This document shows, piece after piece, positions 1 through 63,204 of a stretch of 64,000 bases of DNA. Each line of letters begins with the position of its first letter. Positions within the stretch are counted from its first letter, which is position 1. The notes below the pieces were generated by a model. It was given only the letters and a program-made list of their open reading frames with translations, searched no databases and was not told where the DNA came from. The DNA comes from Candidatus Magasanikiibacteriota bacterium (lineage in GTDB: Bacteria; Patescibacteriota; Patescibacteriia; Magasanikbacterales; GWA2-37-8). The position numbers and the translations under genes were made by a program. The stretch lies in the NCBI GenBank assembly GCA_023246725.1, contig JAHFHV010000001.1, forward strand, positions 13,618 through 77,617, written 5' to 3'.

Positions 1-43
1 CACCATGGTTATGAATAGTTCGTAGCCATAGTGAGGACAGCCG

Positions 44-77
44 CAAAAAAACAGACTTTTAAGAAGTCTGTTTTTTT
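44..77. terminator. Bidirectional hairpin terminator (acagactt-ttaa-gaagtctgt flanked by A and T runs)
   Basis: Perfect 8-bp stem, A-run upstream, T7 downstream. Confidence 0.5.
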
Positions 78-5590: not shown

Positions 5591-5710
5591 GTCATTCCGA
5601 ATCCCCCGTCACAGGGGGTGAGGAATCTCTGTCCAATCGTTGTCATTCCGACCGTAGTGGAGGAATCTCGCCAACAATCGCGAGATCCCTCGGCTGCGCT
5701 CGGGATGACA
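5591..5710. repeat. MITE-like palindromic element family 1 (GTCATYCYGA...GGATGACA), 1.5 copies
   Basis: Terminal inverted repeats gtcattccga/cgggatgaca; related copies at 13178, 16076, 23146, 25217, 27229, 45026, 49713. Confidence 0.8.
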
Positions 5711-5721
5711 ATTGACAATTA

Positions 5722-6990: not shown

Positions 6991-7102
6991 CAACTATTTT
7001 ACCATAATTTGCCTGGGGTGGCAAGTCCGGCAGAGAGCCTTGACCCGCCCTTATTTTTATGCTAGTCTTGGGCTAACCGGACATATCCGGAGGAGGTGAA
7101 CC

Positions 7103-7486
7103 ATGTACAAGCGAATAGTCCTTCCAGGTAAAATGGGGTCGGCGGGCGGGATCTCTGACGGGCTTTCACTCATGCTCGTGCCCTGTGGGCGGGCCTTCTG
7201 GGTCCACCACAACCTCAATGTGCTGGGATGGAACAGGGCGTGGGCGCCACCGCTCGTCCTCACGCAGAGCCAGGTGCCAGAGGAGTGGCTCGCCAAGGGC
7301 GCTTCGGTCTTGTGGGCTGACCAGGTGACACTCGACGAATGCAACTATTTCTCCAACACCCAACTCGGTGACGGCAGCTACCTCGTCCTGTTCACGCACA
7401 ACCACGGGAGCGGTTCTGATCGCGTGCACAAGATCGATCTGTTTGTCTCGCCGGGGCTCCCAGAGGTCGAACAGACCGAGCCTTGA
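7103..7486 (+). CDS. Hypothetical protein in high-GC island A
   Basis: ggaggaggtgaacc-ATG Shine-Dalgarno; region about 65% GC against about 45% backbone; no recognisable family. Confidence 0.4.
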   Translation: MYKRIVLPGKMGSAGGISDGLSLMLVPCGRAFWVHHNLNVLGWNRAWAPPLVLTQSQVPEEWLAKGASVLWADQVTLDECNYFSNTQLGDGSYLVLFTHNHGSGSDRVHKIDLFVSPGLPEVEQTEP

Positions 7487-7557
7487 TCCCGCTCTTCCAA
7501 TCGGCCAAGGAGGCAGGCATGGCCCGCGCACCGCCGTAAGGCATGCCGACGAAGAAC

Positions 7558-7625
7558 AGAACCACCTTCCGACGCATCATATATATAGTTCGCTGTATGT
7601 ATGGTGCGAGGGTGGTTTTTTGTTT
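7558..7625 (+). terminator. Long-loop hairpin + T-run element (gaaccaccttc...gagggtggtttttt) shared with 34752-34820
   Basis: Stem aaccaccYtc/gagggtggtt, about 40-nt loop, T-run; conserved acgcatc and atggtgcgagggtggtttt in both copies. Confidence 0.55.
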
Positions 7626-7703
7626 TGCCAGGATTCAGACAGATTTTGTGGATCTGCCTGCGGGCAGGGATTACACGGACTGCGACGGAAGATTGCGAAG
7701 TAT

Positions 7704-7748: not shown

Positions 7749-8048
7749 GTGTTATATTCTATGTCTCATACCATCCAAGTTCGTGTTAACCCTAAAACCA
7801 AGCGCGCGGTAGGTAAGATTTTTGCGGAGCTCGGCCTGGACATGAGCACGGGGATTAAAATTTATTTTTCCCAGGTGCTTAAAACAGGCGGCGTGCCGTT
7901 TCCTTTATTAACTGAAAACGGGTTTACTCCGGAACAGGAAAACAAACTTTTGGCTATCGCGCGGCAAACCGAAGCCGACTATGCGAGCGGCAAGTTAAAA
8001 GCGTATTCATCGCTAGCAGAAATGAGAAAAGATATTTTGTCGCGCTAA
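7749..8048 (+). CDS. dinJ: Type II antitoxin, RelB/DinJ family
   Basis: VNPKTKRAVGKIFAELGLDMSTGIKIYFSQV resembles DinJ ribbon-helix-helix N-terminus; 99 aa; immediately precedes toxin. Confidence 0.7.
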   Translation: MLYSMSHTIQVRVNPKTKRAVGKIFAELGLDMSTGIKIYFSQVLKTGGVPFPLLTENGFTPEQENKLLAIARQTEADYASGKLKAYSSLAEMRKDILSR

Positions 8049-8051
8049 GGT

Positions 8052-8336
8052 ATGAGATTAATTATCTTGCCGTCAAAACAATTCAAACGCCAATACAGAC
8101 GCCTGCAAGTTTCCGGAAATGTTAGATTGATACATAAGCTTGATGCGATGATTGAGGCGCTGGCTTGTGGCGAGAAGCTCCCGGAAAGCGCCCGAAGCCA
8201 CAAACTTTTGGGCAATCTCAATAAATATGTAGAATGTCATGTTGAGCCGGACTGGTTATTGATTTATCAAGTTTACGAAGAAAATCTCATACTGGAACTT
8301 TTTGCCACCGGCACACACGCTACCCTGTTTGGATAG
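8052..8336 (+). CDS. yafQ: Type II toxin mRNA interferase, YafQ/RelE family
   Basis: C-terminus HVEPDWLLIYQV...ATGTHATLFG matches YafQ signature (HVEPDWILIYK...RTGTHAALFG). Confidence 0.75.
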   Translation: MRLIILPSKQFKRQYRRLQVSGNVRLIHKLDAMIEALACGEKLPESARSHKLLGNLNKYVECHVEPDWLLIYQVYEENLILELFATGTHATLFG

Positions 8337-12074: not shown

Positions 12075-13067
12075 TTAGCGCGCTGGTTCGACGATGCGGA
12101 ATCCAATCCGTTCGTTAGCAGCCCGTCCGGCTTTGGTCGTGTTTGGCAACATTGGCTTAGTACTGCCAAAACCAGCCATCATCAGTCGCCCGGACGGTAC
12201 TCCCATTATTTCCACCAGATATTGCCCAACTGTTTGGGCGCGCTTTAGTGAGAGACCGAGGTTTTTGCCGGCATTACCCCGATTGTTAGTGTGCCCTTCA
12301 ATGCACACAAGGCTTATGTCTTGCCTGGCGATAAGCGCATTGGCGACCGCGCCGAGCACCGGAAAGCTCCGGGGCAGGATGGTTTCTTTGCCTCGCGCGA
12401 ACCTGATCGGCGAGAGCGTCATGATCATTCCGGCCCTGATTTCTACCAGTCCCGGACAGCCATTCTTGCTAGGGTCCGGGTCGGGCGCGCCACGCTGGTC
12501 GGGGCAAGCGTCTAAGTGGTCGAGCACCGTGTCTTCATCGCGGTCGCGAATCGGACACCCCCGGTATTCGGGGCGCTTATCGGGGTGGGGTCCGGCTGGA
12601 ACAGTTTTACATTCGTCAGCTTCGTTCCCGATGCCGTCGCCGTCGCTGTCCGGGTTGGGCGGCGGCTTCGGCACCGCCTCACGCAGGGGCGGAGCCGGAA
12701 TCGCGGCCGTCTTTTGCGTGTCGGCGATTAACCGTTCCATGTCCGCGATCTTGGTTTCCACTTCGTCGCGGTTCGGTGCCTTGGGCGCTCTCCGGATGTA
12801 CGTCCGGTAGAAGCGCAGGGCTTCCAGGTGCTTCCCGGCGAGTCGGAACGACTGCGCGATGTTGTAGAGGAGCACCGGATCGTCCTTGATCTCGTAGGCC
12901 TGCTGGAAGGCCACGATTGCCTCGTTGTACTTGCCTTGGTCGAATAGGCTGGTGCCGCGCTTGTAGTGCTCGCGGGCGGCCGAGGCCTCGTACTGGATGG
13001 GCTGGCCGAAGGCGAGCGAAGAGAAGACGACGAGGGCGGTGGCGAGAGCGATGGCGATGTGGCGCAT
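12075..13067 (-). CDS. Secreted TPR-repeat / thrombospondin type-3 repeat / OmpA-domain protein, in high-GC island
   Basis: Signal peptide, TPR (YNEAIVAFQQAYEI...), TSP3 Asp-rich Ca-binding repeats (DSDGDGIGNEADEC, DRDEDTVLDHLDACPD), C-terminal OmpA-like; about 62% GC. Confidence 0.7.
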   Translation of the reverse strand: MRHIAIALATALVVFSSLAFGQPIQYEASAAREHYKRGTSLFDQGKYNEAIVAFQQAYEIKDDPVLLYNIAQSFRLAGKHLEALRFYRTYIRRAPKAPNRDEVETKIADMERLIADTQKTAAIPAPPLREAVPKPPPNPDSDGDGIGNEADECKTVPAGPHPDKRPEYRGCPIRDRDEDTVLDHLDACPDQRGAPDPDPSKNGCPGLVEIRAGMIMTLSPIRFARGKETILPRSFPVLGAVANALIARQDISLVCIEGHTNNRGNAGKNLGLSLKRAQTVGQYLVEIMGVPSGRLMMAGFGSTKPMLPNTTKAGRAANERIGFRIVEPAR

Positions 13068-13177: not shown

Positions 13178-13269
13178 GTCATTCTGACCCCGCACTTGCG
13201 GGGGAAGAATCTCTGTCCAATTGGTCAAATAACGACCGACAGAGATCCTTCACTGCGTTCAGGATGACA
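13178..13269. repeat. MITE family 1 copy
   Basis: gtcattctgaccc...gttcaggatgaca. Confidence 0.8.
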
Positions 13270-28728: not shown

Positions 28729-29853
28729 ATGCTAATTAAACGCATAATTCAGCCAAAAATTGAAGCTTCTCTATTTAAAGGCAAAGCCATTATTATTTAT
28801 GGCGCCCGCCAGGTAGGCAAAACCACCTTGGTTAAAGAAATTCAAAAGAAATTTGTGGCCGCGTCCCTTTACCTGAATTGTGATGAACCAGACATCCGCG
28901 CGGCCCTTACGAACACCACCTCCACCGAGCTCAAGGCGTATTTTGGGACTAAAAAAATAATTATTATTGATGAAGCCCAGCGCGTGGAAAACATCGGCCT
29001 GACGCTTAAACTGCTCGTGGATGCTTTTCCCGAATTGCAAATCATCGCGACCGGATCTTCGTCGTTTGAATTGTCCAACCGCATTGTGGAGCCTTTAACC
29101 GGGCGCGCCTTTGAATTTTTGTTATATCCTTTTTCCAGCGAAGAGCTTGGCGAACAGTACGCGCCCCTGGAAATCAAACGTCTGTTGGAACAGCGGCTTA
29201 TTTATGGGATGTACCCGGAAATTGTGGAACAAACGGAAAATATTGCCACGCGCTTAAAAAACATCGCCCGCAGTTACGCGTACAAAGATATTTTATTCTA
29301 CCAGCATATCCGCAACCCGGATATTTTAGAAAAATTACTGTCGGCCTTGGCTTTGCAAATTGGCCATGAGGTATCGTACAGCGAGCTGGCCAAGCTCCTT
29401 AGCATTAACCGCGTTACCGTGGAAAACTACGTGGCAATTTTAGAAAAAGCGTTTATTATTTTTCGCCTGCGCCCGTACAGCACGAATCCGCGCAAGGAAC
29501 TGGCCAAACTGCGAAAAATTTATTTTTACGACACCGGCATTCGCAATGCTCTCATTAATAACCTTAACCCGCTTAATTTGCGCAGCGATGCTGGCGCGCT
29601 GTGGAAGAATTTTTGGATTCTGGAACGCCTAAAAAATAACCATAATCATGGCCGTGACGCGCGCGCTTATTTTTGGCGTAATTATCAGAAGCAAGAAATT
29701 GATTATATTGAGGAAGCGAATGGGAAGCTGGCGGCCTTTGAATGCAAATGGTCGGTAACCAAACCAGCGCGAGCGCCCTCTGGCTGGCGCGCCCTCTACC
29801 CGGGTGCCTCGTTTACCGCGGTACACCCGGGTAACTTTTTAGAAATTAAATAG
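28729..29853 (+). CDS. AAA+ ATPase, DUF4143 type
   Basis: Walker A GARQVGKTTL, Walker B IIIDEAQ; paralog of 52389..53633. Confidence 0.7.
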   Translation: MLIKRIIQPKIEASLFKGKAIIIYGARQVGKTTLVKEIQKKFVAASLYLNCDEPDIRAALTNTTSTELKAYFGTKKIIIIDEAQRVENIGLTLKLLVDAFPELQIIATGSSSFELSNRIVEPLTGRAFEFLLYPFSSEELGEQYAPLEIKRLLEQRLIYGMYPEIVEQTENIATRLKNIARSYAYKDILFYQHIRNPDILEKLLSALALQIGHEVSYSELAKLLSINRVTVENYVAILEKAFIIFRLRPYSTNPRKELAKLRKIYFYDTGIRNALINNLNPLNLRSDAGALWKNFWILERLKNNHNHGRDARAYFWRNYQKQEIDYIEEANGKLAAFECKWSVTKPARAPSGWRALYPGASFTAVHPGNFLEIK

Positions 29854-29979: not shown

Positions 29980-30249
29980 ATGAAACCTGTCTCTAAAGCC
30001 CTTAAAACCAAACTCATTGGCGTTAAGGATTTTCGCCAAAACCTGGCGCATTATTATGCGCAGGGAGTCAAAAACGGCTTAAGCTACATTGTTACCAATC
30101 GTGACCGGGCCATTTTTGAAGTCAAGCCGCTGTCTAAAAAAGAAGCCATGCTTAAAAAGTTGGCGGCGGATATCGCGCACGCCGAACAGCAGGTGCGCGA
30201 GGGCAAGGTGTATACCTTGGAACAGGTCAGACAGCGCCTAGGTATTTAA
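29980..30249 (+). CDS. Type II antitoxin (Phd/YefM-like, inferred)
   Basis: 89 aa, immediately upstream of RelE/ParE toxin; weak family resemblance. Confidence 0.5.
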   Translation: MKPVSKALKTKLIGVKDFRQNLAHYYAQGVKNGLSYIVTNRDRAIFEVKPLSKKEAMLKKLAADIAHAEQQVREGKVYTLEQVRQRLGI

Positions 30250-30259
30250 TGATGGATAT

Positions 30260-30529
30260 ATGGAGGTCTTCAGATTACATCTTACCCAAGACGCGGAAGA
30301 TGATTTGGCTAACCTTGACCAGACGATTGCCTCTCGAATAGCGGATAAACTCCAGTGGTTCGTCTCCCAAGAAAATCCACTGTATTTTTCTAGACGCCTT
30401 TCCGGCTTTTTGGGCAAGTATCGTTTTCGCGTAGGGGACTATCGTATTATCTTCAAAGTTGATTATCGAGGCACCATCACTATTCTCGTCATTCTCCGCA
30501 TCCGGCACCGCCGCGAGGTGTACGATTAA
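30260..30529 (+). CDS. Type II toxin, RelE/ParE family
   Basis: YRFRVGDYRIIFKVDYRGTITILVILRIRHRREVY matches RelE/ParE C-terminal signature. Confidence 0.75.
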   Translation: MEVFRLHLTQDAEDDLANLDQTIASRIADKLQWFVSQENPLYFSRRLSGFLGKYRFRVGDYRIIFKVDYRGTITILVILRIRHRREVYD

Positions 30530-32275: not shown

Positions 32276-32342
32276 ATTTCGTTACATTCGTTATTATTCG
32301 GAAATTTGTGGATTCGGCTAAGATTTGTTGATTCGGATTACA
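32276..32342. repeat. Right half of duplicated intergenic sequence (family 6), matches 33845-33910
   Basis: ttcggctaagatttgttgattcggattacatt identical in both. Confidence 0.6.
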
Positions 32343-33770
32343 TTAAACAATGCTTCCCGTTTTTTTAACCACCACAAACGGCGTCTTAACTAGAATTATG
32401 AAGTCAAGATACAAATTCCAATTTTCTATGTAAAACGCGTCCAGTTTTATTTCTTCGGCAAAGGTTAAATGGCTACGGCCGGAAATTTGGGTCAGGCCGG
32501 TAAGGCCGGGTTTAATGGCAAACACAATGCGGTGCTCATTCTCATAGCCAGCCACTTCCCGGGGCTGGTGGGGGCGCGGGCCCACTAAACTCATGTCGCC
32601 TTTTATAACATTCCAAAATTGCGGCAGTTCATCCAAGCTCCAGCGGCGCAGGAAGCGGCCGACCGGCGTGAGGCGCGGATCATTTTTAATTTTGTAAATC
32701 GGGCCGGCCTTGCTGCTGCTGGTTTTAATTAGTTCGGCTTCGGTTTTTAAGGCGGTTTGCCCGTGGCGGCCAAATTGCGGACCGGTGCAGTACTTTTGAT
32801 ACATGGTGCGGAATTTAAGCGTAAAAAATTTCTCATTCAACTGGCCAACGCGTTCGTTTTTATAAATCACCGGGCGGCCGCTTTCTATTAAAATAATCAA
32901 CGTAATAAACAGGTTTAGAGGAATGAAAATAATAAACAGGAGCGTTCCAAAAAACATATCAAACAGGCGTTTTATTATCCGCCCCCAGCCGGTAAGACGC
33001 GTACGGCGCAGTTCAATAATGGGGATGCCGGCAATGGTGGAGACCGTCATGTTGGCGGTAATGGTGGCAAATAAATCGGCCGAATATTTAAAGGTAATGT
33101 GGTTTAGGTTGGCAAATTCAATGGCGGCCAGGGCTTCGGCTTCACTGCCTTTGGGGTCGGTAAAAATAATTTCATCGGGTTTGGTTTTGCGAATAGCCCC
33201 GGCGGATGCGTGGTTAAAATGGTTGAACGTTCCCACGATGTTATAGCCCAGACGTGGTTGACCTAAAAATGCTTCACGGATAGTTTTCGCAATCTTCTCG
33301 TTTCCGATAATCACGGTGCGGCGGAGACCGACGCCAACGCGGTAGAGCAAGGCCTTGCACCCGCGCAGGAGGAGCCGCCCCAGGCTCACCAAGGCAATTG
33401 ACAGCGCCCCACCCACCAAAACCAAAAAGCGCGAATCAAATTTGCTTAGGGTAAAAAAAACATAAATGGTAATGGCCGCAAACCCGGTGGAACAGGCCAT
33501 GACCACGCGAGTTAAATCCCGCGCCAGTTTGCGGTTAGGGTCAGTGTTATAAAGACCGGAGAGGGCAAAAATAATCAGCCAGCCAAAAGCGACCAAGGCG
33601 ACAATGGGCCAGTAGCGCTCCCAGCTTAATTTAGCGGCAAAAGAGACCGGGCGAATGGCAATTATCCACGGCGAAAAACGCAGGGCGTAGGCGGATGCTC
33701 CGGCCAAGAGGAGCATGAGGTAGTCTACCGGCAGTTGGAGAAAGGTGAAGATAAGTTCAAAGCGTTTCAT
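32343..33770 (-). CDS. Polyprenyl-phosphate hexose-1-phosphate transferase (bacterial sugar transferase, EPS/O-antigen priming enzyme)
   Basis: N-terminal TM helices, C-terminal PVIYKNERVGQ...FTLKFRTM...SLVGPRP. Confidence 0.85.
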   Translation of the reverse strand: MKRFELIFTFLQLPVDYLMLLLAGASAYALRFSPWIIAIRPVSFAAKLSWERYWPIVALVAFGWLIIFALSGLYNTDPNRKLARDLTRVVMACSTGFAAITIYVFFTLSKFDSRFLVLVGGALSIALVSLGRLLLRGCKALLYRVGVGLRRTVIIGNEKIAKTIREAFLGQPRLGYNIVGTFNHFNHASAGAIRKTKPDEIIFTDPKGSEAEALAAIEFANLNHITFKYSADLFATITANMTVSTIAGIPIIELRRTRLTGWGRIIKRLFDMFFGTLLFIIFIPLNLFITLIILIESGRPVIYKNERVGQLNEKFFTLKFRTMYQKYCTGPQFGRHGQTALKTEAELIKTSSSKAGPIYKIKNDPRLTPVGRFLRRWSLDELPQFWNVIKGDMSLVGPRPHQPREVAGYENEHRIVFAIKPGLTGLTQISGRSHLTFAEEIKLDAFYIENWNLYLDFIILVKTPFVVVKKTGSIV

Positions 33771-33774
33771 AGTG

Positions 33775-33910
33775 TACGTATAATCCTAATCCACGAATTT
33801 CAATTCGAATCTATCAATTTCCGAATCCTACGAATATTCTTGGTCGTTAAATTCGTTATTATTAGGATATTTGTAGATTCGGCTAAGATTTGTTGATTCG
33901 GATTACATTC
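33775..33910. repeat. Intact copy of family-6 intergenic sequence
   Basis: Contains both halves that flank the GxxExxY gene. Confidence 0.55.
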
Positions 33911-34098
33911 ATTCTACCTGGTTTTATAACTCTTGACAACCAGGCTAAAATATGTTAAGTTAGTATGCTCTTGTGTAGAGCGTTCTTTATTTTTAGCCTT
34001 TCTTTAGTTTTTTAAACTAAAAAATCTGAGAAGGGTTGAAATAATTTCGGATAACAACGCCACGGATCCGGCGCGATGCCGGGGAGGAAATAGAGACG

Positions 34099-34698
34099 AT
34101 GGACATGACCAAGGAAGAGAGCGCGGCCCTCGCGCTCAAGCTTGCCTTGGAAGGGGCCATTGCGGCCAAGGGCGGCGACCCCGGTGTCGTCATGCGACTC
34201 CTCAAGAATGAGTCCTGGCTCGAGCTGGTCGCCGCGCAGCTCATGGAGCTGGCGATCGCCGAGGGTAGCATCTTTACTCTCCTGCTCGACCGGCGTCCCG
34301 GCGTTATCGCGCGGCTGATCGAGGAGGCCGGCTACGAGGGGTACAAGAATCCGGAGATCACCGACGCGAAATACCAGGTCGCGTCCGGGGGGCTGGTCCC
34401 GGTGCGGTTCCGCACCGTCCCGGGCAAGCAGCTCAAGAGCCCCGACGAGTGGGTCTGGCGGAACAACGCCGAGGCCGCCTTCCACAAGATGGGTCTCCAA
34501 TTCCCGGATCCCGCCGAGGCCCTCCTCGTCCCCGCCAAGAACCGGCAGACCGGCCGCGGCAGGCCCTACGTCGCCTTCATCCAGGGCGCCAGCTGCGCGT
34601 TCTACGTAAGCGAGAGAGACCGGAGGCGCAGCCTCGACCTAAGCGGCGGCAACTGGTACCCGGAATACGAGTTCGTCGGCGTCGAGAAGCAGAAGTAG
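34099..34698 (+). CDS. Hypothetical protein in high-GC island B
   Basis: ggggagg SD; about 67% GC; no family recognised. Confidence 0.4.
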   Translation: MDMTKEESAALALKLALEGAIAAKGGDPGVVMRLLKNESWLELVAAQLMELAIAEGSIFTLLLDRRPGVIARLIEEAGYEGYKNPEITDAKYQVASGGLVPVRFRTVPGKQLKSPDEWVWRNNAEAAFHKMGLQFPDPAEALLVPAKNRQTGRGRPYVAFIQGASCAFYVSERDRRRSLDLSGGNWYPEYEFVGVEKQK

Positions 34699-34751
34699 TG
34701 TTCGTGTCTCCTCCCACCCCCCGGAATCGGCCGCGGGGTGGAGAGGCTAAT

Positions 34752-34820
34752 GAGAACCACCCTCTCAACGCATCGTGATTACGAAAATTTCGTAATTATG
34801 GTGCGAGGGTGGTTTTCTTG
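34752..34820 (+). terminator. Second copy of long-loop hairpin + T-run element (aaccaccctc...gagggtggtttt)
   Basis: Perfect 10-bp stem; shares acgcatc and atggtgcgagggtggtttt with 7558-7625. Confidence 0.55.
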
Positions 34821-34846
34821 ATTTAATATTGTTAGAATGGTATAGT
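34818..34846 (+). promoter_or_regulatory. Promoter ttgatt-17-tatagt
   Basis: Read directly. Confidence 0.4.
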
Positions 34847-34853
34847 TTGGCGT

Positions 34854-35153
34854 ATGCAAATAAAAATTTTAAAAATCAATTTACCCGACCCGGAGCGCTC
34901 CATTAAACGTTGTGGGTATGCCGCGCATGTGGACAGGAGAACGCACGAGACCAGTTACGTGCGGCGGCTGGACCGAGATTTATTTCCCCGGTTTCATTTG
35001 TATGTGGAGGAAAAAGGTGAGAATTATTCGCTGAATTTGCATTTAGACCAGCGGGCGCCAATTTACGCTGGCGTTACAGCACATTCGGGGGAATATGATG
35101 GGGTGGTGGTGGAGCGGGAGATGGAACGAATAAGAAAATTGTTGAATTGCTGA
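34854..35153 (+). CDS. Hypothetical protein
   Basis: 99-aa ORF with promoter. Confidence 0.35.
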   Translation: MQIKILKINLPDPERSIKRCGYAAHVDRRTHETSYVRRLDRDLFPRFHLYVEEKGENYSLNLHLDQRAPIYAGVTAHSGEYDGVVVEREMERIRKLLNC

Positions 35154-36337: not shown

Positions 36338-36343
36338 ACAAGT

Positions 36344-36895
36344 GTTTATAGCAGATGATCGCCCGCTCAACGCGCAAGCGCCTGAGCGGGAGGAAAGTCC
36401 GAACACCCTCAGTTTTTTCGCTACCTGCTGAGAAAAGGATAGTGGGTAACACCCACCGTTCCGATGGCAACGTCGGAAAAGGGACAGTGGCACAGAGACA
36501 ATACTACTTTGTCGCGCCGCAGCCTTGGCGAAGGCGGAACCATAAGAATCCCCGCCTTCGCCAAAGCTATGGCGCGGCAAAGGAAAGGTGAAAAGTGTAT
36601 GGGAGTTTTGGTTCTTAAGACCAAAGCTACGATACTCCGTCCCGTAGCAATGCGGGATGTGTGCTAAACCCTGTCTGGTGCAAGAGCAGCGTTTTCGTCG
36701 CAAGGCGAATTCGTAAAGTTCGCTCGCATTGCCTCGCCGAAGCCCCGCAACTGCGGGGCGAAGGCAGGCTTGATCCGGTTAGCAATAACCGGGCTAGATA
36801 AATGATCATCACCACGGATTCTTTGCACGGATCAACACAGATATTAGTGAAGATCAGTGTAAAAAATCCGTGGTACAAAATTCGGCTTATCGCTG
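36344..36895 (+). ncRNA. rnpB: RNase P RNA (bacterial type A-like) with expansion hairpins
   Basis: P4 halves gaGGAAAGUCCGaac (bulged U) and acaaaaUUCGGCUUAucg, GGGUAAcaCCCACC, cUAGAUaAAUGAuc; ends in terminator hairpin 36896-36934. Confidence 0.65.
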
Positions 36896-36963
36896 TAAAC
36901 CGCGCACCACGACAAAATTTGTCGTGGTGCGTTTGTTAGTCATAAGAAGTTGGGGACTGGCTA

Positions 36964-48668: not shown

Positions 48669-50939
48669 ATGAACCTCACAACCCCGGTAAGCGAACTCAC
48701 CAAGGTAGGCAAAACCGCGGCCAAGCGCCTGGGGTATCTTGGCATTCACACCGCCCAGGACTTATTGTATTACTTTCCGTTTCGCTACGAAGACTATCGC
48801 CGCGTGGTTTTAATTAAAGATTTGCGAGACGGAGAGAGTGTTACCATTAGTGGAGCAGTGGAACTAATTTCCAATCGGCGCAGTTTCCGCAGCCGCAAGA
48901 TGGTTACCGAGGCGCTCATTCGCGACCACAGCGGGAGCTTGCGCGTGGTGTGGTTTAACCAGCCGTTTATTGGCAAGGCGCTCCGCCCGGGCGATAAAGT
49001 TTATCTCTCGGGCGCTGTTAAAGGCGATCTGCTGGGGGCCCAAATGGTCAGCCCGGCTTATGAAAAAATTACGTCGCGGGAAACTACCTCAACCGCGCGC
49101 CTGGTGCCAATGTACGCGCTTACGGCCGGACTTACCCAAAAACAAATTCGATTTTTAGCCCAGCAAGTAGCGCCGTTGGCCGAGCAGCTGTCTGATTGGC
49201 TGCCAGCCAAAATTTTAGGACAGTATGATTTGATTCCACTGCCCCAGGCTCTCCGCGGCATTCATTTTCCGATTGATGAAGCGGCTCTTAAAAAGAGCAC
49301 CGAGCGATTGAAGTTTGATGAGTTATTGCTGCTCCAGCTTCAGGCTGAAGACAGTCGAAAAAACAGATTAGACCACAGCGCGCCCCAGCTTACTTTTCAC
49401 CAAAGCGCTCTGCAAGAGTTTGTGGGCCGCCTGCCGTTTACGCTTACCAAAACCCAAAAAATCGCGGCCTGGGAAATACTTCAAGACATCCAAAAATCAA
49501 CTCCGATGAACCGCCTGCTCTCGGGCGATGTTGGCTCGGGCAAAACCGTGGTGGCGGCTATGGCGCTGTACTCAGCATTTTTAAATGGTTACCAAGGAGT
49601 GCTCATGGCGCCAACCGAGATACTCGCGGCCCAACACTTTGCGTCTTTGTGTAGATTGTTTAGCGGTCTCCCTATTTCAATTGGGTTACTTACGGCTAAT
49701 CAAGTTTCAACTGTCATTCTGAACGGAGCGCAGCGCAGTGAAGAATCTCTGTCTCAATCAATCAACGGAGAGAGATCCTTCGCTACGCTCAGGATGACAG
49801 TTGCTAAAAAAGAAAAAGAAGGATTTTTGAAAAAATTAGCTATCGGAGAAATAAAGATCATCGTTGGCACGCACGCTTTGCTTTCGGAAGGGGTACATTT
49901 TAAAAAACTCGGCCTGGTGATTGTGGATGAGCAACATCGATTTGGCGTGGAACAGCGGAAGGTTATTAAGGAGAAATCATTGACGACTTCCAGCCAGACC
50001 TCTCTCACCGCTCTCTCCTCTGCAGAGGAGAGAGGTACGGTCACACCCTCTCCTTTGCAAAGGAGAGGGCAGGGAGAGGTCTCGCAATCGGCGCATTTTT
50101 TAAGTATGACGGCCACTCCCATCCCGCGTTCATTGGCTCTTATGTTGTATGGCGACCTCGACATTTCTATCATCAGTGAACTTCCGCCGGGACGCAAGCC
50201 AATTATCACGCGCCTGGTGGAGCCAGCCAAACGGGAAAAAGCCTATGAGTTTATTCGGGCACAGGTGAAAAATGGACGACAAGTATTTGTGGTGTGTCCG
50301 CTGATTGAAGATAAACAGGCTGGTGCGATTGTTGCCCCCCTGCGAGGGGGTGGTTCTAACGACAAAAGATCAGTCTTGAGTGAATATGACAAACTATCCC
50401 AACAAATTTTTCTTGACCTCCGCGTAGGCTATCTACACGGTAAAATGAAAGCTAAAGAAAAAGATGGGGCAATGGAGAAATTTAAACAAGGCGAGACCGA
50501 TATTCTTGTGTCCACGTCGGTCGTAGAAGTCGGCGTGGACATCCCGAACGCCAGTGTGATGATGATTGAAGGCGCGGATAAATTTGGCCTGGCGCAACTG
50601 CACCAATTCCGCGGACGCGTGGGCAGGTCAATCCATCAATCATATTGTTTGCTGTTTACCGATAGTGATTCGTATCGCTCTTCCGAGCGATTAAAATATT
50701 TTGAAACGCACCACGATGGTTTTAAACTAGCGGAAAAAGATTTGGCTATGCGGGGGCCAGGCGAAGTGTATGGCACGGAGCAAAGCGGCCTGCAACAACT
50801 CCGGCTCGCGAAATTGACTGATCAGGGCATAATAAAAAAAGCGCGCGAGGTGGCGCGCGAGGTGGCTCCAGACATTAAGAAATATCCTAAACTTTTAGAA
50901 AAGATTAAAGAGTGGGAGCGAGTGGTGCATTTGGAATAA
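48669..50939 (+). CDS. recG: ATP-dependent DNA helicase RecG, with in-frame palindromic insertions
   Basis: Wedge domain, helicase motifs (GDVGSGKT, DEQHRFG), C-terminal TRG motif; 756 aa. Confidence 0.9.
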   Translation: MNLTTPVSELTKVGKTAAKRLGYLGIHTAQDLLYYFPFRYEDYRRVVLIKDLRDGESVTISGAVELISNRRSFRSRKMVTEALIRDHSGSLRVVWFNQPFIGKALRPGDKVYLSGAVKGDLLGAQMVSPAYEKITSRETTSTARLVPMYALTAGLTQKQIRFLAQQVAPLAEQLSDWLPAKILGQYDLIPLPQALRGIHFPIDEAALKKSTERLKFDELLLLQLQAEDSRKNRLDHSAPQLTFHQSALQEFVGRLPFTLTKTQKIAAWEILQDIQKSTPMNRLLSGDVGSGKTVVAAMALYSAFLNGYQGVLMAPTEILAAQHFASLCRLFSGLPISIGLLTANQVSTVILNGAQRSEESLSQSINGERSFATLRMTVAKKEKEGFLKKLAIGEIKIIVGTHALLSEGVHFKKLGLVIVDEQHRFGVEQRKVIKEKSLTTSSQTSLTALSSAEERGTVTPSPLQRRGQGEVSQSAHFLSMTATPIPRSLALMLYGDLDISIISELPPGRKPIITRLVEPAKREKAYEFIRAQVKNGRQVFVVCPLIEDKQAGAIVAPLRGGGSNDKRSVLSEYDKLSQQIFLDLRVGYLHGKMKAKEKDGAMEKFKQGETDILVSTSVVEVGVDIPNASVMMIEGADKFGLAQLHQFRGRVGRSIHQSYCLLFTDSDSYRSSERLKYFETHHDGFKLAEKDLAMRGPGEVYGTEQSGLQQLRLAKLTDQGIIKKAREVAREVAPDIKKYPKLLEKIKEWERVVHLE
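49713..49799. repeat. MITE family 1 copy inserted in-frame in recG (87 bp = 29 codons)
   Basis: gtcattctgaacggagcgcagcgcagtgaagaatctctgtc...gagatccttcgctacgctcaggatgaca. Confidence 0.85.
49995..50082. repeat. Family 5 twin-hairpin element inserted in-frame in recG
   Basis: ctctcctctgcagaggagag and ccctctcctttgcaaaggagaggg hairpins; encodes SLTALSSAEERGTVTPSPLQRRGQGE. Confidence 0.7.
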
Positions 50940-52388: not shown

Positions 52389-53633
52389 TTATATCACCCA
52401 TCGAGGAAGAAAATGCACGGCGGTGTTTTCTATTTTTGTGGCATGGAAGGCGGAATCTCCCAAAAGTAAAGCGTGGGACGGGCGGTATTCCCGTATAAAG
52501 TTGTGAAGCGATCGAGTAACGGTCGCTGTATTGAGCAAACTTTTACTTTCGATGGGAATTACCGTTGGTCCGGTTTTAACAACAAAATCAACCTCCGACT
52601 GGGATTTGCTGCGCCAATAATTGACTGAGCAATTCTGTTTTAAGAGTTGCGTAAAAATAAAATTTTCATATAGCGGCCCCTTGTCGCTCCGCCGGTTAAG
52701 CGGGTTAAAATTTTGCAGGACATAATTTCGCAGACCAGTGTCGAAAAAATACGGCTTAGGATTTTTGGTGATTTCTTTGCGTCGGTTGGAAAACCACGGC
52801 CGCACCAGTTGGCAGATAAAAGTTTTTTCCAGAATATTGAGATATTTTTTTAGGGTTATCTGATCGTATCCGGAAATTTGGCCGAGTTCGTTATAGTTTA
52901 CTAATTGCCCGATTTGCACCGCCAAGGCTTCAATTAGTTTTGAGAGCTTAAAATCATCAATTAGGCCCAAGGTATCCTTAATATCACGCAGAAAATAGGT
53001 GTTGTAAATATTGCTTAAAACAGTCATTTTTTTATCTTCGGTATCTTCTAGTATTACTCGCGGGTAGCCGCCCCAAATAATAAATTCATCGGCCAGCGCT
53101 AAAAGTTGGCTATTAGCAGGGCCGCTAATTTTTAGCGAGGCAATGCTTGGTTTTTTTAAATTAATGTGCTGGCGGCATTCCGCGTATAGCGCCATGAGCG
53201 ATGGATCGCGGAAAGACACGAATTCCTCAAAATCAAGCTCATACAGGTTAAAAATAAAAACCCGGCCGACTAAAAATTTTAGCGCCTTGATGGTTAAATC
53301 AATAGCGCTGGAACCGGAAATTATTATTTTACAGCCCGGGTAAGTGTCATAGAGATATTTAAGATTTTTTCCGCCTTGCTTGGCATATTGGAATTCATCA
53401 ATAAATAGGTATTTGCCTGCTAAGTATTTCTTGGCAAATCCGTCAATATCCCGTTCAAAGTCAGCCAGGGTTTGCATTTTATCAAAACTAATAAAAACCG
53501 CGTCGCTTAAGCCGCCATGGATTTTTTTTAACAACGTGGTTTTGCCGCTTTGCCGCGGGCCGACAATTGCCAAAATTTCTGGGTCTTCTAAATAGCTTAA
53601 AATGGTAGTCTCTAATTTTCGCTTAATATACAT
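52389..53633 (-). CDS. AAA+ ATPase, DUF4143 type (paralog 2)
   Basis: Walker A GPRQSGKTTLL, Walker B LFIDEFQ. Confidence 0.7.
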   Translation of the reverse strand: MYIKRKLETTILSYLEDPEILAIVGPRQSGKTTLLKKIHGGLSDAVFISFDKMQTLADFERDIDGFAKKYLAGKYLFIDEFQYAKQGGKNLKYLYDTYPGCKIIISGSSAIDLTIKALKFLVGRVFIFNLYELDFEEFVSFRDPSLMALYAECRQHINLKKPSIASLKISGPANSQLLALADEFIIWGGYPRVILEDTEDKKMTVLSNIYNTYFLRDIKDTLGLIDDFKLSKLIEALAVQIGQLVNYNELGQISGYDQITLKKYLNILEKTFICQLVRPWFSNRRKEITKNPKPYFFDTGLRNYVLQNFNPLNRRSDKGPLYENFIFTQLLKQNCSVNYWRSKSQSEVDFVVKTGPTVIPIESKSLLNTATVTRSLHNFIREYRPSHALLLGDSAFHATKIENTAVHFLPRWVI

Positions 53634-53847: not shown

Positions 53848-55422
53848 CTAGAAAGGCAGATACCACGAACAGGCGTGGCCTTGTGATGCCGCCTTTTTTT
53901 CTTCATTTTTTAAACCTAACTTTGTCCAATCGAAAGCGCGCGGGTCGCCGTGTCCGTTTGATGGAACTAGTTCACAATGGCCAACAATATTTTTTGAAGC
54001 GAGAGGAATATTATAACGCGCCCTAATATCATCTACCAATTTTTTTAAAGAATCATATTGTGCCGCTGTCGGATCGCATGCTGTGTGTACATCTTGCGCG
54101 GAAGGATTTTTAAGTGAGTTGCATGAATTCCCGCTGGCATCTTTGCCAATATTAAGCTCTATTCCTATGCCATCATTGTTGCCGCCTGGCGCATGGGGGA
54201 CAACACACCTCTCAGCGGCATGTTGAACGATTTTCCCATCCTTGCTAATAGTATAATGCGCGCCAGCAAGTTTGTACTTAATTGGTTTGCCGTTTTTGTC
54301 ATATCTTTCTTTCTCCGGTATCTGATCAGGATTTCTATTGTAAAAACAACCTTTATACCATGTATTCTGGTTCATTTCTAAAGTATAACCACCATTGTGG
54401 ATAACTATTTTTTTAATATTTGATGAATCCCGTGTTTTATAAGTGCAAACATCAACTTTACCAAGAAAAGTTTGTGTATCAACATAGCTACGGTTTTTTT
54501 CTCCGGGAGTAAGTTCTTTCAAAGAATCACATGGGCCAGAGACAGCCTTTATGGCAATAACAGTGGCTTTTTCATCCTCTATATGATTATCTTCTAACGC
54601 TATCTTTGCCACATACTTCACCCGCAAGGCTTTAAAGGCCACTAAATCCGGATTAAGGTAAAACATTATTACGTACGAAAACCACAGAATCATAAGGCCA
54701 ATGACAATCTGCCCAATGCGCTTATAGGCTTCCATTTTGCCTTCGCCGCCGCCGGAAATAACAATGTCAAACCCTTTTTTAATAATAATGGCTACGGCCA
54801 CTACGCTTCCCACGGCCACGCCGAATTTATACACGGCGGCAATGTATTCCCCAATCCACGGGATGTGCAAGAAGCCTTCCGCGTCCACTTGGCCGGACAG
54901 ATCGGAAAATTTAAGCTGGGGAAGGCGGATCATTAGCTTGGGTTTATAGGTGCCGGCGTTAATTTCGTTCTGCAGGCTAAGGCCCCATACCCCGGGGTCG
55001 AGCAAAGCATCAGTGGCGCTGGACTTGCCGGGTTTAAGGGGCGCGCAGATTTCCCCGTGGGTGCTTTCGCAATAGTCTAGGTCTTTTGTGGTGTTAGCGC
55101 CGTCAACACAGCTCCATTCGCCATGGTCGCTGGGAGCGCCGTAGGCGCTAAAACAGTCGTTATCATCGTCGCAGTCGCAATACCATTTGTTTTCAATAAT
55201 GCCACCCTGGTTTTTAAAAACTTCCGTGCTTTTTTCGCAATCGCCGCTAAAACACTGGGAGTCGCCCTGGCATTCTTCGCCAAACTTTTTTTTGCCGCCG
55301 GTAGGAGCCTGTTCGCAGCTGCCGGCCAAGGCCGGCGCTAGCGGCGCGAGAAGAATAAAAATCAAACCGGTTAACCAGCTAACGGCCAGGGCTTTACAGA
55401 TTAATGCTCGTGGGCGCGACAT
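53848..55422 (-). CDS. Exported Cys-rich VirB2/TrbC-pilin-like protein fused to Amidase_2/PGRP peptidoglycan amidase
   Basis: Signal/TM, Cys-rich N-domain, helical hairpin AVAIIIKKGFDIVISGGGEGKMEAYKRIGQIVIGLMILWFSYVIMFYLNPDLVAF parallel to 43526 protein; C-terminal amidase-like block HAPGGNNDGIGIEL...GHCELVPSNGHGDP. Confidence 0.55.
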   Translation of the reverse strand: MSRPRALICKALAVSWLTGLIFILLAPLAPALAGSCEQAPTGGKKKFGEECQGDSQCFSGDCEKSTEVFKNQGGIIENKWYCDCDDDNDCFSAYGAPSDHGEWSCVDGANTTKDLDYCESTHGEICAPLKPGKSSATDALLDPGVWGLSLQNEINAGTYKPKLMIRLPQLKFSDLSGQVDAEGFLHIPWIGEYIAAVYKFGVAVGSVVAVAIIIKKGFDIVISGGGEGKMEAYKRIGQIVIGLMILWFSYVIMFYLNPDLVAFKALRVKYVAKIALEDNHIEDEKATVIAIKAVSGPCDSLKELTPGEKNRSYVDTQTFLGKVDVCTYKTRDSSNIKKIVIHNGGYTLEMNQNTWYKGCFYNRNPDQIPEKERYDKNGKPIKYKLAGAHYTISKDGKIVQHAAERCVVPHAPGGNNDGIGIELNIGKDASGNSCNSLKNPSAQDVHTACDPTAAQYDSLKKLVDDIRARYNIPLASKNIVGHCELVPSNGHGDPRAFDWTKLGLKNEEKKAASQGHACSWYLPF

Positions 55423-55425
55423 ATT

Positions 55426-56073
55426 TTATTTCGCGATTAAACTCATCAGCATCTGCTCAAGATCAACAGCTTGATCTACGCGCACTCGTTTGTTGTTGGC
55501 AAACAAAGCCGGCGGGTTTTTAAGGCCCAGCGCCGCGGCCAGGCTGGCGCCAGCGTCAATCCCCGGCTCCATGGTTCCAGACGACAAGCACTGCTGCCAT
55601 TCAGTAAGGTTAAGTTTAAGCGCCGCGGCCAATTCCCGCAGAGCCTTGGCGCCGGCTTTGGTTGGCCGCGCCGCCAGCTGGTCGGCATACTGCCAAAATT
55701 TGCCTTGCGCGCCAGCGCACCAAGCGGCCACATGCGGGGCAAGATTGGCCGGGGAAAACAGCTGGCTCTTAGGCAAGTCCTTCCAGGCCAGCCGGGCATC
55801 GCTCGGGTGCGCGTCCACAAAGGCAGCGAGCGTCCGCAATATTTTTTTACTAGCCGCATCGCCTAAATCGGCGAAGATCACCAGTGTGAGCGGCGCCCCG
55901 GGGTTGCCGCGCAGGGGGTCGCTGCTTAAAATTGGCAGGGGGTAGTTCTCAAAACTAATTAAAGGAGCGACTTCGGCCGTGGTCACAATTCCTTGCGCGC
56001 GTTTAACCTGACGCCAGAAAATTATGGCCAGGATGATTGTGCAGAGCCCGATAATCAACAATAGTTTTTTCAT
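55426..56073 (-). CDS. DsbA-family thioredoxin-fold protein, CXXC lost (degenerate paralog of 42746 DsbA)
   Basis: LTLVIFADLGDAASK where CPNC expected; AAWCAGAQGKFWQYADQLA conserved with 42746 product. Confidence 0.6.
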   Translation of the reverse strand: MKKLLLIIGLCTIILAIIFWRQVKRAQGIVTTAEVAPLISFENYPLPILSSDPLRGNPGAPLTLVIFADLGDAASKKILRTLAAFVDAHPSDARLAWKDLPKSQLFSPANLAPHVAAWCAGAQGKFWQYADQLAARPTKAGAKALRELAAALKLNLTEWQQCLSSGTMEPGIDAGASLAAALGLKNPPALFANNKRVRVDQAVDLEQMLMSLIAK

Positions 56074-56074
56074 A

Positions 56075-57331: not shown

Positions 57332-57350
57332 ATGTCAAATACCAAATGTG
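57313..57350. repeat. Repeat family 2 copy
   Basis: tatcaaatgacaaatgtcaaataccaaatg. Confidence 0.6.
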
Positions 57351-57367
57351 ATTATCGCCGTGATTTT

Positions 57368-59317: not shown

Positions 59318-59326
59318 AATGAAGAG

Positions 59327-63181: not shown

Positions 63182-63204
63182 CGTATATGTTATACTGAAT
63201 TTAT

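Follow-up and report, generated by a model that had tools for sequence, protein, structure and literature searches.

We analyzed a 64,000-nt stretch of the chromosome of an ultra-small bacterium (Patescibacteria; hereafter, the window) and found that three small GC-rich genes of foreign composition are each followed by a long bulged hairpin. We consider it probable that these hairpins form a genome-specific family of terminator hairpins on acquired accessory genes, that is, a 3'-end module that was duplicated or recombined and not a site-specific recombination site. The most likely functions of the hairpin, as predicted from its anatomy, are termination and stabilization of the transcript. The copies and the genes that carry them are designated A, B, and Z, and their parts are as follows.

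7040–7068, plus strand: promoter-like site of island A (TTGACC and TAGTCT, 17 nt apart, the latter a weak −10), by consensus match only
7089–7099, plus strand: Shine-Dalgarno (SD) sequence of ORF A, GGAGGAGGTGA (also given as AGGAGGTG), 4 nt before the ATG, from the sequence
7103–7486, plus strand: ORF A, a GC-rich orphan gene of 127 aa, from GC3 and protein searches
7487–7558, plus strand: 3'UTR of ORF A, GC-rich and structured, extending from the stop codon to the long hairpin, from the fold
7559–7618, plus strand: long bulged hairpin A, in which a 4-nt 5' bulge (CGAC) separates an outer stem of 11 bp from an inner stem of 15 bp capped by a UUCG loop, from the RNA fold
7616–7626, plus strand: U-run UUUUUUGUUUU, a terminator tail that starts inside the 3' arm of hairpin A and runs past it, from the sequence
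33933–33961, plus strand: promoter-like site of island B (TTGACA and TAAGTT, 17 nt apart), with an AT-rich leader of ~135 nt after it, by consensus match only
34099–34698, plus strand: ORF B, 199 aa, GC 0.66, GC3 0.90, SD sequence GGAGG, from homologs and composition
34596–34684, plus strand: VR-equivalent segment of ORF B, from alignment to the TR of locus L001
34710–34746, plus strand: GC-rich hairpin beginning 11 nt downstream of the stop codon of ORF B, with a loop that is not GRNA, from the fold
34754–34815, plus strand: long bulged hairpin B, in which a 5-nt 5' bulge (UCAAC) separates an outer stem of 11 bp from an inner stem of 16 bp capped by a loop of 3 nt, from the RNA fold
34813–34819, plus strand: U-run UUUUCUU at the 3' base of hairpin B, from the sequence
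1–44, plus strand: 3' two-thirds of hairpin Z, from covariance model R1; the whole element is L020:3689–3748, which corresponds to −15 to 44 of the window

The backbone of the window has a GC content of ~49%, and backbone genes have a GC content of 0.44–0.52 and a GC3 of 0.44–0.58. The GC3 values of the hairpin-bearing genes A, B, and Z are 0.77, 0.90, and 0.98, respectively, compared with ~0.5 for backbone genes. The high-GC island with a 127-aa ORF that a preliminary description had reported was found in place: 50-bp windows have a GC content of 0.54–0.70 over 7100–7550, whereas the flanks are richer in AT (0.26 on the left and 0.32–0.44 on the right). ORF A itself has a GC content of 0.607 (GC1/2/3 = 0.62/0.43/0.77), and its high GC3 is limited to its own frame. 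In a census of 50 genes, an SD match of at least 5 nt was seen only in ORF A, ORF B, and a GC-rich OmpA/TPR gene, the strongest being that of ORF A; 40 of the 50 genes lacked any SD-like 4-mer or longer, in agreement with the view that the SD sequence of ORF A is unusual for this backbone. The promoter of a divergent lactamase-fold gene (TTGCCA-17-TAAAAT, 7024–6996, minus strand) lies just left of the promoter-like site of island A.

A relative, L024, has an empty site at the syntenic position, where the lactamase-fold gene is directly beside S1 with a spacer of just 251 bp. The absence of island A from this site shows, at the level of genome comparison, that the island is an apparent insertion and its gene accessory. 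The earlier concern that the islands might arise from chimeric assembly was also addressed: independent assemblies, made from several samples, contain the same junctions, so the islands are not chimeras and this reading is ruled out.

ORF A remained an orphan in every protein search. Its sole homolog among 5.8 billion proteins was itself, and nothing was found in Pfam, PHROGs, and phage searches; BLAST against phages and plasmids and the searches of PHROGs and viral loci were likewise all negative. Residues 83–118 bear a weak likeness to the last strands of He_PIG/Ig-like repeats, and a single-sequence AlphaFold model (pLDDT 36) was not usable. ORF A was also considered as a homolog of the ORF B family and rejected, since the BLASTP match was collinear but insignificant (E = 0.04) and the hhalign probability was <1%. 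The 3'UTR of ORF A had no significant similarity to the 3'UTRs of B or Z. The toxin–antitoxin locus next to island A, a RelB/YafQ pair to which attention had been drawn, has backbone composition and is a separate insertion, and B and Z have no such neighbor; the adjacency looks coincidental.

ORF B has homologs, namely P0003 (55% identity) and P0004, and the homologous loci contain VR/TR pairs with bAvd and RT adjacent. In these loci, 11/12, 19/19, and 10/10 of the TR–VR mismatches (40/41) are at adenines. These homologies place ORF B in a family of DGR variable (target) proteins found in Patescibacteria. Its VR-equivalent segment aligns better to the TR of L001 than to the VR of L001, with mismatches at 10 of the 24 TR adenines and at 7 of the 65 other positions (Fisher p = 0.002). 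The layout of a promoter followed by a long leader is the same in the homologous loci, and the 3' ends of the homologs consist of a GC-rich hairpin, a long hairpin, a U-run, and then the TR promoter; GC-rich hairpins likewise follow the VR in L001 and L013. The long hairpin of L001 has a CACCCTC/GAGGGTG base, as has the window hairpin. No TR-like repeats of islands A, B, and Z were found in the window or the fetched loci, tblastn with the RT and Avd proteins of L001 detected nothing in the window, and RVT/Avd domains were absent from the flanks (−3.7 kb and +8 kb), leaving no TR or RT within −3.7 to +72 kb. Four assemblies carry the identical ORF B sequence and show no VR variation. Given this setting, we propose that ORF B may be an orphaned or remote member of the family. 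In a Foldseek search of the PDB with a model of ORF B (pLDDT 53), C-type-lectin-like folds led the list, none of them significant, and a profile search of PDB sequences found nothing.

Hairpin A comprises 26 pairs, five of which are G·U, and has a folding energy of −35.2 kcal/mol (z = −7.9) on the plus strand and −17.8 kcal/mol on the minus strand; it scored 85 bits with the covariance model. Hairpin B comprises 27 pairs, four of which are G·U, with −42.1 kcal/mol (z = −9.5) on the plus strand and −27.2 kcal/mol on the minus strand. Both hairpins are located 55–72 nt from the stop codon. With RNA as well as DNA parameters, the fold is better on the top (sense) strand because of the G·U pairs, which become A·C mismatches on the bottom strand. 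The element gaaccaccttc-N40 noted previously after ORF A does exist, with arms gaaccaccttc (7559–7569) and gagggtggtttttt (7608–7621), but its gap is 38 nt and not 40.

The outer (basal) helices of A and B are identical at 21 of 22 nt, and the basal nucleotides at 37 of 38, with a diverged apex. A 19-mer common to A and B, ATGGTGCGAGGGTGGTTTT, occurs exactly twice in the window, even when three mismatches are allowed, and two matches were obtained in none of 100 shuffles, which bears out the observation that near-identical elements follow two unrelated ORFs. The similarity between islands A and B is restricted to the hairpin and has sharp edges exactly at its base; that of the two proteins, the remaining 3'UTRs, and the downstream DNA was not above shuffled controls, and the same held for a comparison of the DNA downstream of the hairpins with the L001 and L013 TR-RNA leaders. 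A simple terminator scan of the window left hairpin A unlisted because the bulge breaks the pattern. A scan of the window against Rfam 15 at the gathering threshold returned RNase P RNA and tRNA-Leu only, so the hairpins match no family in it, and E-value scans of the three islands with Rfam 15 gave only chance matches to miRNA precursors.

Further copies, the existence of which would bear on whether the resemblance of A and B was random, were sought with a covariance model, and a third, diverged copy, Z, was found at the window start behind a GC-rich ORF. Its score with model R1 was 29.7 bits (E = 7e-6 in a search of 91 kb), while the next, unrelated matches reached at most 22.6 bits. The gene before hairpin Z is a 55-aa ORF (L020:3448–3615; GC 0.68, GC3 0.98) with the SD sequence GGAGG and a promoter-like site with sigma-70-like hexamers at L020:3264–3292 (consensus match only). 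Hairpin Z has 25 pairs, two of them G·U, and a 5-nt bulge ending in AC. Instead of a U-run, an A-run is located 3' of hairpin Z, followed by a separate bidirectional terminator at 45–77 of the window. Since a MAFFT alignment of the three hairpins was out of register in the outer stem, pair counts were taken from the individual folds. Across A, B, and Z, structural alignment gives canonical pairing in 74 of 75 pair cells, and in Z both partners differ in 9 of 10 pairs of the outer stem. The best-kept part of the three copies is the bulge with its terminal AC and, next to it, the inner-stem pairs CNCAYCAU/AURGUGNG. The inner stems of Z and B are identical at 11 of 16 nt per arm, and the similarity among the copies is mosaic (A resembles B, and B resembles Z).

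The family thus comprises three copies in ~76 kb, dispersed as singletons at intervals of 7–27 kb between housekeeping genes. Every one of the three follows a GC-rich gene with an SD sequence, and no copy follows any of the ~48 backbone genes (chance p ~2e-4). Exact and structured pattern scans for the hairpin gave no match in IMG/VR or in JGI metagenomes, and two in GTDB representative genomes, both Flavobacteriales; the latter have no U-run or comparable context and were therefore judged to be chance. Within these three collections, the family is apparently specific to this genome. Other palindromic repeat families are present in the same genome. A sliding-window MFE scan for long hairpins was not discriminating in GC-rich coding DNA.

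Island A would be a self-contained, laterally acquired accessory gene of ~600 bp (7025–7626), consisting of a weak promoter-like site, a canonical SD sequence, a 127-aa orphan ORF with high-GC codons, a structured 3'UTR, and a terminal RNA element. This terminal element would be a stem-loop of 26–27 bp formed in the sense transcript, with a 4–5-nt bulge in the 5' arm and a G+C-rich base, followed in A and B by a U-run, and it would both terminate transcription independently of additional factors and hinder 3' exonucleases. A stem-loop with a G+C-rich base and a U-run was found after the stop codon on the coding strand for A (7559–7626) and B (34754–34819) and not for Z. The hairpins resemble Rho-independent terminators in this base, in the U-run directly after it, in the sense-strand orientation, and in their position at gene ends; an upstream A-rich tract can extend the stem, as in bidirectional terminators. 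That the hairpins are more stable as sense RNA owing to their G·U pairs points to a long intrinsic terminator or 3'-end stabilizer and not to a DNA recombination site. The idea of a terminator module that travels with acquired genes, one of two suggested at the outset, largely stands in view of the terminator anatomy, the association of all three copies with GC-rich SD-bearing ORFs, and the absence of island A from the relative.

Several features exceed those of an ordinary terminator. The stem of the shared hairpin is two to three times longer than those of other terminator-like hairpins in the window (8–17 bp), and, unlike in Rho-independent terminators, there is a constant 4–5-nt 5' bulge, the base sequence is conserved across unrelated genes, and Z lacks a U-run. 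A simple terminator requires structure and not sequence, and the identity of 37 of 38 basal nucleotides beside a diverged apex hints at a sequence-specific partner or recent conversion. Termination cannot be the only shared function, since Z precedes an A-run and a separate terminator. Duplication or recombination of a 3'-end module among accessory genes would best account for the similarity among the hairpins, both the nearly identical bases of A and B and the mosaic similarity of A to B and of B to Z.

The other reading suggested at the outset, that the islands are integron-type cassettes whose hairpins act as attC recombination sites, is extremely improbable. The hallmarks of attC sites are the R''-L''/L'-R' boxes, the RYYYAAC/GTTRRRY core sites, a bottom-strand fold, and IntI, and recombination takes place through the folded bottom strand. 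The resemblance to such cassettes lies in the small, often orphan ORFs of foreign composition, each placed before an imperfect palindrome of similar length (60–65 nt) with an unpaired region, and in the toxin–antitoxin pair that adjoins one of them. However, a regular-expression search found neither RYYYAAC nor GTTRRRY in A, B, Z, and their flanks on either strand, and no complementary R''/R' pair 50–145 nt apart was found anywhere in the window. No integrase, attI, or array was seen; Pfam scans of substantial ORFs detected no integrase, transposase, or reverse transcriptase in the window, 3.7 kb to its left, and 8 kb to its right. The strand bias is the reverse of that of attC sites, with the sense strand outfolding the bottom strand, each gene has a promoter-like site of its own (weak in A), and the copies are scattered 7–27 kb apart among housekeeping genes. 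Nothing supports an integron for these genes, and the proposal of attC-like mobile cassettes is contradicted. A mobile palindrome of the REP/MITE type, spread alone and landed by chance after these genes, is unlikely too. REPs of enterobacteria and pseudomonads are palindromes at gene 3' ends, with conserved stems and variable tips, that can terminate transcription or stabilize mRNA. The hairpins share with REP/BIME elements the form of genome-specific imperfect palindromes at gene 3' ends, and the sharp edges of similarity at the hairpin base, the specificity to this genome (no match in IMG/VR and JGI metagenomes, and two chance-like ones in GTDB), the further palindromic repeat families, and the mosaic similarity suggestive of recombination among copies would all fit a mobile palindrome. 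Against it, the copies follow GC-rich SD-bearing genes in 3/3 cases and none of the ~48 backbone genes (p ~2e-4), no target-site duplication or direct repeat flanks the three copies, and the window contains no Y1/RAYT or other transposase. Unlike REP/BIME elements, the hairpin is longer (60–65 nt) and has few copies in ~76 kb, all on genes of foreign composition, with no RAYT seen. In addition, in other genomes the homologs of ORF B are also followed by a long hairpin in the corresponding place, and the base that L001 has in common with the window hairpin suggests that the hairpin was inherited with the gene.

Two other explanations assign the hairpin to a partner molecule. It is very unlikely that the bulged helix serves as the operator of an RNA-binding protein or as a site of RNase III-type processing and in this way defines a post-transcriptional regulon of acquired transcripts, with termination incidental. 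The strongest conservation across the three copies, in the bulge that always ends in AC and the adjoining CNCAYCAU/AURGUGNG pairs, would be expected of such a site, as would basal helices of A and B that are alike in sequence beyond mere structure (21/22 nt) and the retention of the hairpin in Z despite the separate terminator after it. On the other hand, there are three copies only in ~76 kb, no candidate binding protein was identified, no Rfam family was matched, and recent duplication or gene conversion could explain the conservation equally well. Two more specific ideas about the helix were rejected: a K-turn, because copy B has no tandem G·A, and anti-SD or SD mimicry by the hairpin arms, which was inconsistent between copies. 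Also rather unlikely is that the hairpin base is recognized by the RT–Avd–RNA complex, or in a cDNA integration step, of a DGR encoded outside the window. The family of ORF B consists of true DGR targets, its C-terminal segment has adenine-biased mismatches to the TR of a homolog (p = 0.002), and conservation of the hairpin base in two unrelated genes of one genome fits a shared trans-acting machine. Moreover, inverted repeats downstream of the VR are needed for BPP-1 retrohoming and are conserved in other DGRs (PMC3240598), and ORF B has inverted repeats downstream of its VR-equivalent, resembling the BPP-1 target site (IMH plus hairpin/cruciform; PMC3240598). Those hairpins, however, have GC-rich stems of 7–10 bp and 4-nt GRNA loops, lie 4–34 bp after the VR, and can form on both DNA strands (PMC3240598), whereas the stems described here are bulged, 26–27 bp long, and folded preferentially as sense RNA, with AU-rich apices, a distance of 55–72 nt from the stop codon, and one strand favored via G·U pairs. 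No TR-like repeat of A, B, or Z is present in the window, no RT or Avd within −3.7 to +72 kb, and ORF B has no VR variation in four assemblies. Two of the three host genes are outside the DGR family; A and Z cannot be served by the TR of ORF B because they have no sequence in common with the VR of B. A broader version, in which the bulged helix is a cis tag on GC-rich, SD-dependent foreign transcripts that is read by an RNA-binding protein, an RNase III-type enzyme, or a DGR RT–Avd complex, strikes us as highly doubtful; if it were true, the acquired genes would be a separately controlled regulon or retro-copied, and the tag would have originated from the DGR ancestry of ORF B.

Under the preferred reading, a duplicated or recombined terminator module, accessory genes in a streamlined Patescibacterial chromosome would be single, self-sufficient units with their own SD sequence and a shared long terminator-like hairpin, placed in the intergenic gaps of a syntenic, SD-less backbone. 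If the hairpin base is a recognition site and not a relic of duplication, it could be used to approach how acquired genes are controlled post-transcriptionally or mobilized in an uncultured lineage. For now, the case is tidy but modest, with the integron hypothesis removed and an orphan DGR variable-protein gene flagged, with no retroelement within −3.7 to +72 kb.

The codon composition of ORF B recurs in its relatives: DGR target genes of this family have a GC3 of 0.75–0.9 in genomes of 44–49% GC. Adenine-specific depletion over entire genes was considered as the cause of the high GC content and set aside; A3 is lower than T3 in the ORF B family, yet this could equally reflect ordinary high-GC codon usage.

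Islands A and B each consist of one ORF and a hairpin element at its 3' end. These features, together with a third hairpin copy (Z) that straddles the start of the window, are as follows.

7089–7099, plus strand: SD sequence GGAGGAGGTGA upstream of ORF A
7103–7486, plus strand: ORF A, 127 aa, high-GC frame
7559–7621, plus strand: element A (gaaccaccttc, 38 nt, gagggtggtttttt), 3' of ORF A
34099–34698, plus strand: ORF B, GC 0.66, GC3 0.90
34754–34815, plus strand: element B, near-identical to element A, at the end of island B
−15 to 44 (L020:3689–3748): hairpin Z, a covariance-model match

The preliminary description of island A as a high-GC segment with an SD-bearing 127-aa ORF was borne out. 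GC is 0.54–0.70 at 7100–7550 versus 0.26 immediately to the left (50-bp windows), and ORF A (GC 0.607) has GC1/2/3 values of 0.62/0.43/0.77, a pattern that marks a genuine high-GC reading frame and is present in no overlapping ORF; 10 backbone genes have a GC of 0.44–0.52 and a GC3 of 0.44–0.58. The SD, noted earlier as unusual for the backbone, is a sharper exception than could be seen at that stage: an SD-like motif of at least 4 nt is missing in 40 of 50 genes, making the backbone essentially SD-less. The few strong SDs belong to GC-rich genes: in the window, ORF A (AGGAGGTG), ORF B (GGAGG) and an OmpA/TPR gene (AAGGAGG), and, just beyond its left edge, the ORF of Z. Either such genes were acquired from donors that use SDs, or this organism requires an SD wherever 5' ends are GC-rich and structured. 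The suspicion of a chimeric assembly was dispelled, because the junctions of island A recur in two ENA assemblies and those of island B, with 99.8–100% identity, in two ENA and two Logan assemblies.

ORF A is an orphan, whose sole match among 5.8 billion clustered proteins is itself. A HMMER search over 1.84 billion representatives added only weak matches of residues 83–118 to He_PIG/Ig-like terminal strands. Pfam, PHROGs, phage and viral-contig searches with ORF A were all empty, a blastn search of island A DNA against plasmids gave no match, and the structure model of ORF A was unusable. As had been supposed, the ORF A and ORF B proteins showed no relationship to each other.

The islands are alike at the hairpin only (blastn), and the likeness of the remaining 3'UTRs and downstream DNA was no greater than that of shuffled controls. 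The 64 kb contain exactly two occurrences of the 19-mer ATGGTGCGAGGGTGGTTTT, even with up to 3 mismatches allowed, and no shuffle matched this. The layout gaaccaccttc-N-gagggtggtttttt is as first described, except that the spacer is 38 nt rather than 40 nt. Each copy forms a single long hairpin with an outer stem of 11 bp that is G+C-rich at its base, a bulge of 4–5 nt on the 5' arm only, and an inner stem of 15–16 bp with an A+U-rich apex and a loop of 3–4 nt; in A and B, a U-run begins inside the 3' arm. The plus-strand RNA folds with −35.2 kcal/mol (z = −7.9) for A and −42.1 kcal/mol (z = −9.5) for B, versus −17.8 and −27.2 kcal/mol for the minus strand, because the sense strand has five (A) and four (B) G·U pairs; the top strand also folds better under DNA parameters. 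This asymmetry favours a function in the sense transcript over a symmetric DNA cruciform or a recombination substrate formed by the bottom strand. The element has no match in Rfam. A simple terminator scan, which lists terminator-like hairpins with stems of 5–17 bp, missed hairpin A because the bulge breaks the scan pattern.

The search for further copies, suggested at the outset, yielded a diverged one behind another GC-rich, SD-bearing ORF. A covariance model built from A and B was run along the entire window and the fetched loci, and its third match (29.7 bits, E ~7e-6; next-best unrelated matches ≤22.6 bits) lies in L020, a contig from this genome reaching 3.7 kb beyond the window's left edge. 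Hairpin Z starts 73 nt behind a 55-aa ORF (GC 0.68, GC3 0.98, SD GGAGG) whose N-terminus is hydrophobic. Upstream of Z is a GC hairpin of 10 bp; downstream, in place of a U-run, come an A-run and a distinct bidirectional terminator. The model found no further copy within 8 kb right of the window. All three copies stand behind the few GC-rich, SD-bearing genes (chance p ~2e-4). Their relationship is mosaic: A and B have in common the outer stem (21 of 22 nt) and the lowest part of the inner stem, and B and Z the entire 16-bp inner stem (11 of 16 nt per arm) as well as a 5-nt bulge whose last two nucleotides are AC. The outer stem of Z differs at 9 of 10 pairs with pairing complete, and 74 of 75 aligned pair cells across the three copies hold canonical pairs.

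Homologues of ORF B, comprising three clusters and seven more loci from JGI metagenomes, place it in a family of variable-protein genes of diversity-generating retroelements (DGRs). In three loci (L001, L013 and L015), the 3' end of the homologue is a variable repeat (VR), with a template repeat (TR) copy ~400–500 bp downstream and TR–VR mismatches falling at TR adenines in 11 of 12, 19 of 19 and 10 of 10 cases, respectively. The TR is followed by bAvd and an RVT_1 reverse transcriptase (RT) in L001 and L013; the L015 contig stops at the TR. Adenine-bound mismatches together with bAvd and RT are the defining DGR signature. Between L013:1725–1840 and L015:829–889 (JGI metagenomes), the VRs differ only at TR adenines and the TRs are identical, which is direct evidence of activity for this Patescibacterial DGR. 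Near ORF B itself, no TR or RT was found. Its segment 34596–34684 nevertheless aligns better to the L001 TR than to the L001 VR, differing at 10 of 24 TR adenines versus 7 of 65 other positions (p = 0.002), and so it probably serves, or once served, as a true VR. The ORF B sequence is unchanged in four assemblies and has lost the C-terminal ...VCE ending of the family, both of which fit an orphaned or remote DGR target.

The homologues share a 3' layout of stop codon, GC-rich hairpin(s), long hairpin with a CACCC.../...GGGTG base, U-run and TR promoter, and the long hairpin therefore seems an inherited part of the family's 3' end; the CACCCTC/GAGGGTG base is common to the L001 hairpin and hairpin B. 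Directly 3' of hairpin B, GAATGGTATAGTT (34820–34853) now lies upstream of an unrelated 99-aa ORF (34854–35153). At the corresponding place in DGR loci (L001:6712–6730, L013), TATGGTATAATT or TATGCTATAATT forms the −10 of the TR-RNA promoter; the resemblance would fit a loss of TR-Avd-RT, although so short a match may be fortuitous. ORF B-family genes (L001, L013, L017, L018 and 34099–34698) have a GC of 0.56–0.66 and a GC3 of ~0.75–0.9, which persist in loci of 44–49% GC and between members only 35–55% identical in protein; L002 (GC 0.48) is an exception, and the RT and Avd genes beside these targets are AT-rich.

Each island is best read as an accessory gene that is complete in itself. The shared element at its end is a long RNA hairpin of the sense strand, interrupted by a bulge, and would terminate transcription (A and B) and protect the 3' end. 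The hairpins would form a small, genome-specific family whose members were duplicated or recombined among accessory genes, with the gene family of ORF B as its likely source. The original proposal of a terminator module travelling with acquired genes thus largely stands. Its integron counterpart does not: attC core sites are absent from the elements, and an integrase and a cassette array from the window and its flanks, the strand bias is wrong, and the genes have their own promoter-like sites. That the element is a DGR target hairpin/cruciform is unlikely: such hairpins have 7–10-bp GC stems and GRNA loops, lie 4–34 bp after the VR and form on both DNA strands (Guo et al., PMC3240598), none of which holds for the long shared hairpin. 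The short GC hairpin at 34710–34746 could serve ORF B in that role.

A REP/MITE-like element is a minor possibility; it leaves unexplained the exclusive association with foreign genes and the positional conservation in ORF B homologues. A plain terminator, in turn, does not explain why the basal helix of A and B is identical in sequence beside a diverged apex, why the bulge is conserved, or why the hairpin persists in Z although no U-run follows. Such features leave room for a trans-acting partner that reads the hairpin, although we consider this a slim prospect. The element adds one more member to the class of terminator or REP-like 3' palindromes, and its surroundings, HGT-like islands and an orphan DGR target, are of known kinds. 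Of most use among the secondary results are the dismissal of the integron idea, the assignment of ORF B to a DGR family, the finding of a third copy and the contrast in SD and GC.

Judging from S1 homologues, the window is a segment of the chromosome of a Magasanikbacteria-like Patescibacterium. It contains gyrA, ftsH, thrS, uvrA, recG, RNase P RNA, tRNA-Leu and several toxin–antitoxin pairs, and no integrase, transposase or RT. In a relative (L024; S1 82% identical), the gene order transketolase, gyrA, 133-aa ORF, lactamase-fold gene, S1, ftsH and onward is conserved, with only 251 bp between the lactamase-fold gene and S1. L024 hence lacks both island A and the adjacent RelB/YafQ pair, which are separate insertions because their composition differs. 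It also lacks counterparts of the OmpA/TPR gene and of the Z region, which lies between FemAB and the transketolase gene. Other features of the window are listed below.

7749–8336: RelB/YafQ type II toxin–antitoxin pair, beside island A
12075–13067, minus strand: GC-rich OmpA/TPR gene, 330 aa, strong SD
28729–29853: AAA_14/DUF4143 ATPase
29980–30529: Phd-like/ParE type II toxin–antitoxin pair
52389–53633, minus strand: AAA_14/DUF4143 ATPase
62867–63477: Gp49(HigB-like)/HTH type II toxin–antitoxin pair
105–184, 5633–5712, 13185–13264, and 49713–49792 and 50001–80 in recG (48669–50939): palindromic repeats

The segment 11620–13200, which holds an 86-aa ORF and the OmpA/TPR gene between ftsH and the next conserved gene and is absent from L024, is another accessory insertion; its 3' end carries GC-rich hairpins and a 16-bp AU-rich hairpin outside the A/B/Z family. 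A further compositionally atypical segment (GC 0.58–0.65) at 55400–59320 on the minus strand contains a thioredoxin-like gene and two large ORFs, of 418 and 649 aa, that match nothing in Pfam. Positions 32279–32344 and 33844–33909 form a direct repeat of 66 bp (94% identical), the second copy immediately left of the island B promoter; one copy is upstream of each of two minus-strand genes, PDDEXK_3 and a sugar transferase. The class A RNase P RNA (36343–36905) spans 563 nt versus 367 model positions, implying ~200 nt of insertions, and the ORFs called within it are spurious. The long palindromic repeats fall into several families, GAAGGATCTCT...AGAGATTCTTC, CCCTCTCC...GGAGAGGG and GTCATTCC...GGGATGAC; the two within the recG reading frame, in or beside an unusually long DEAD–Helicase_C gap, are reminiscent of in-frame palindromic element insertions.
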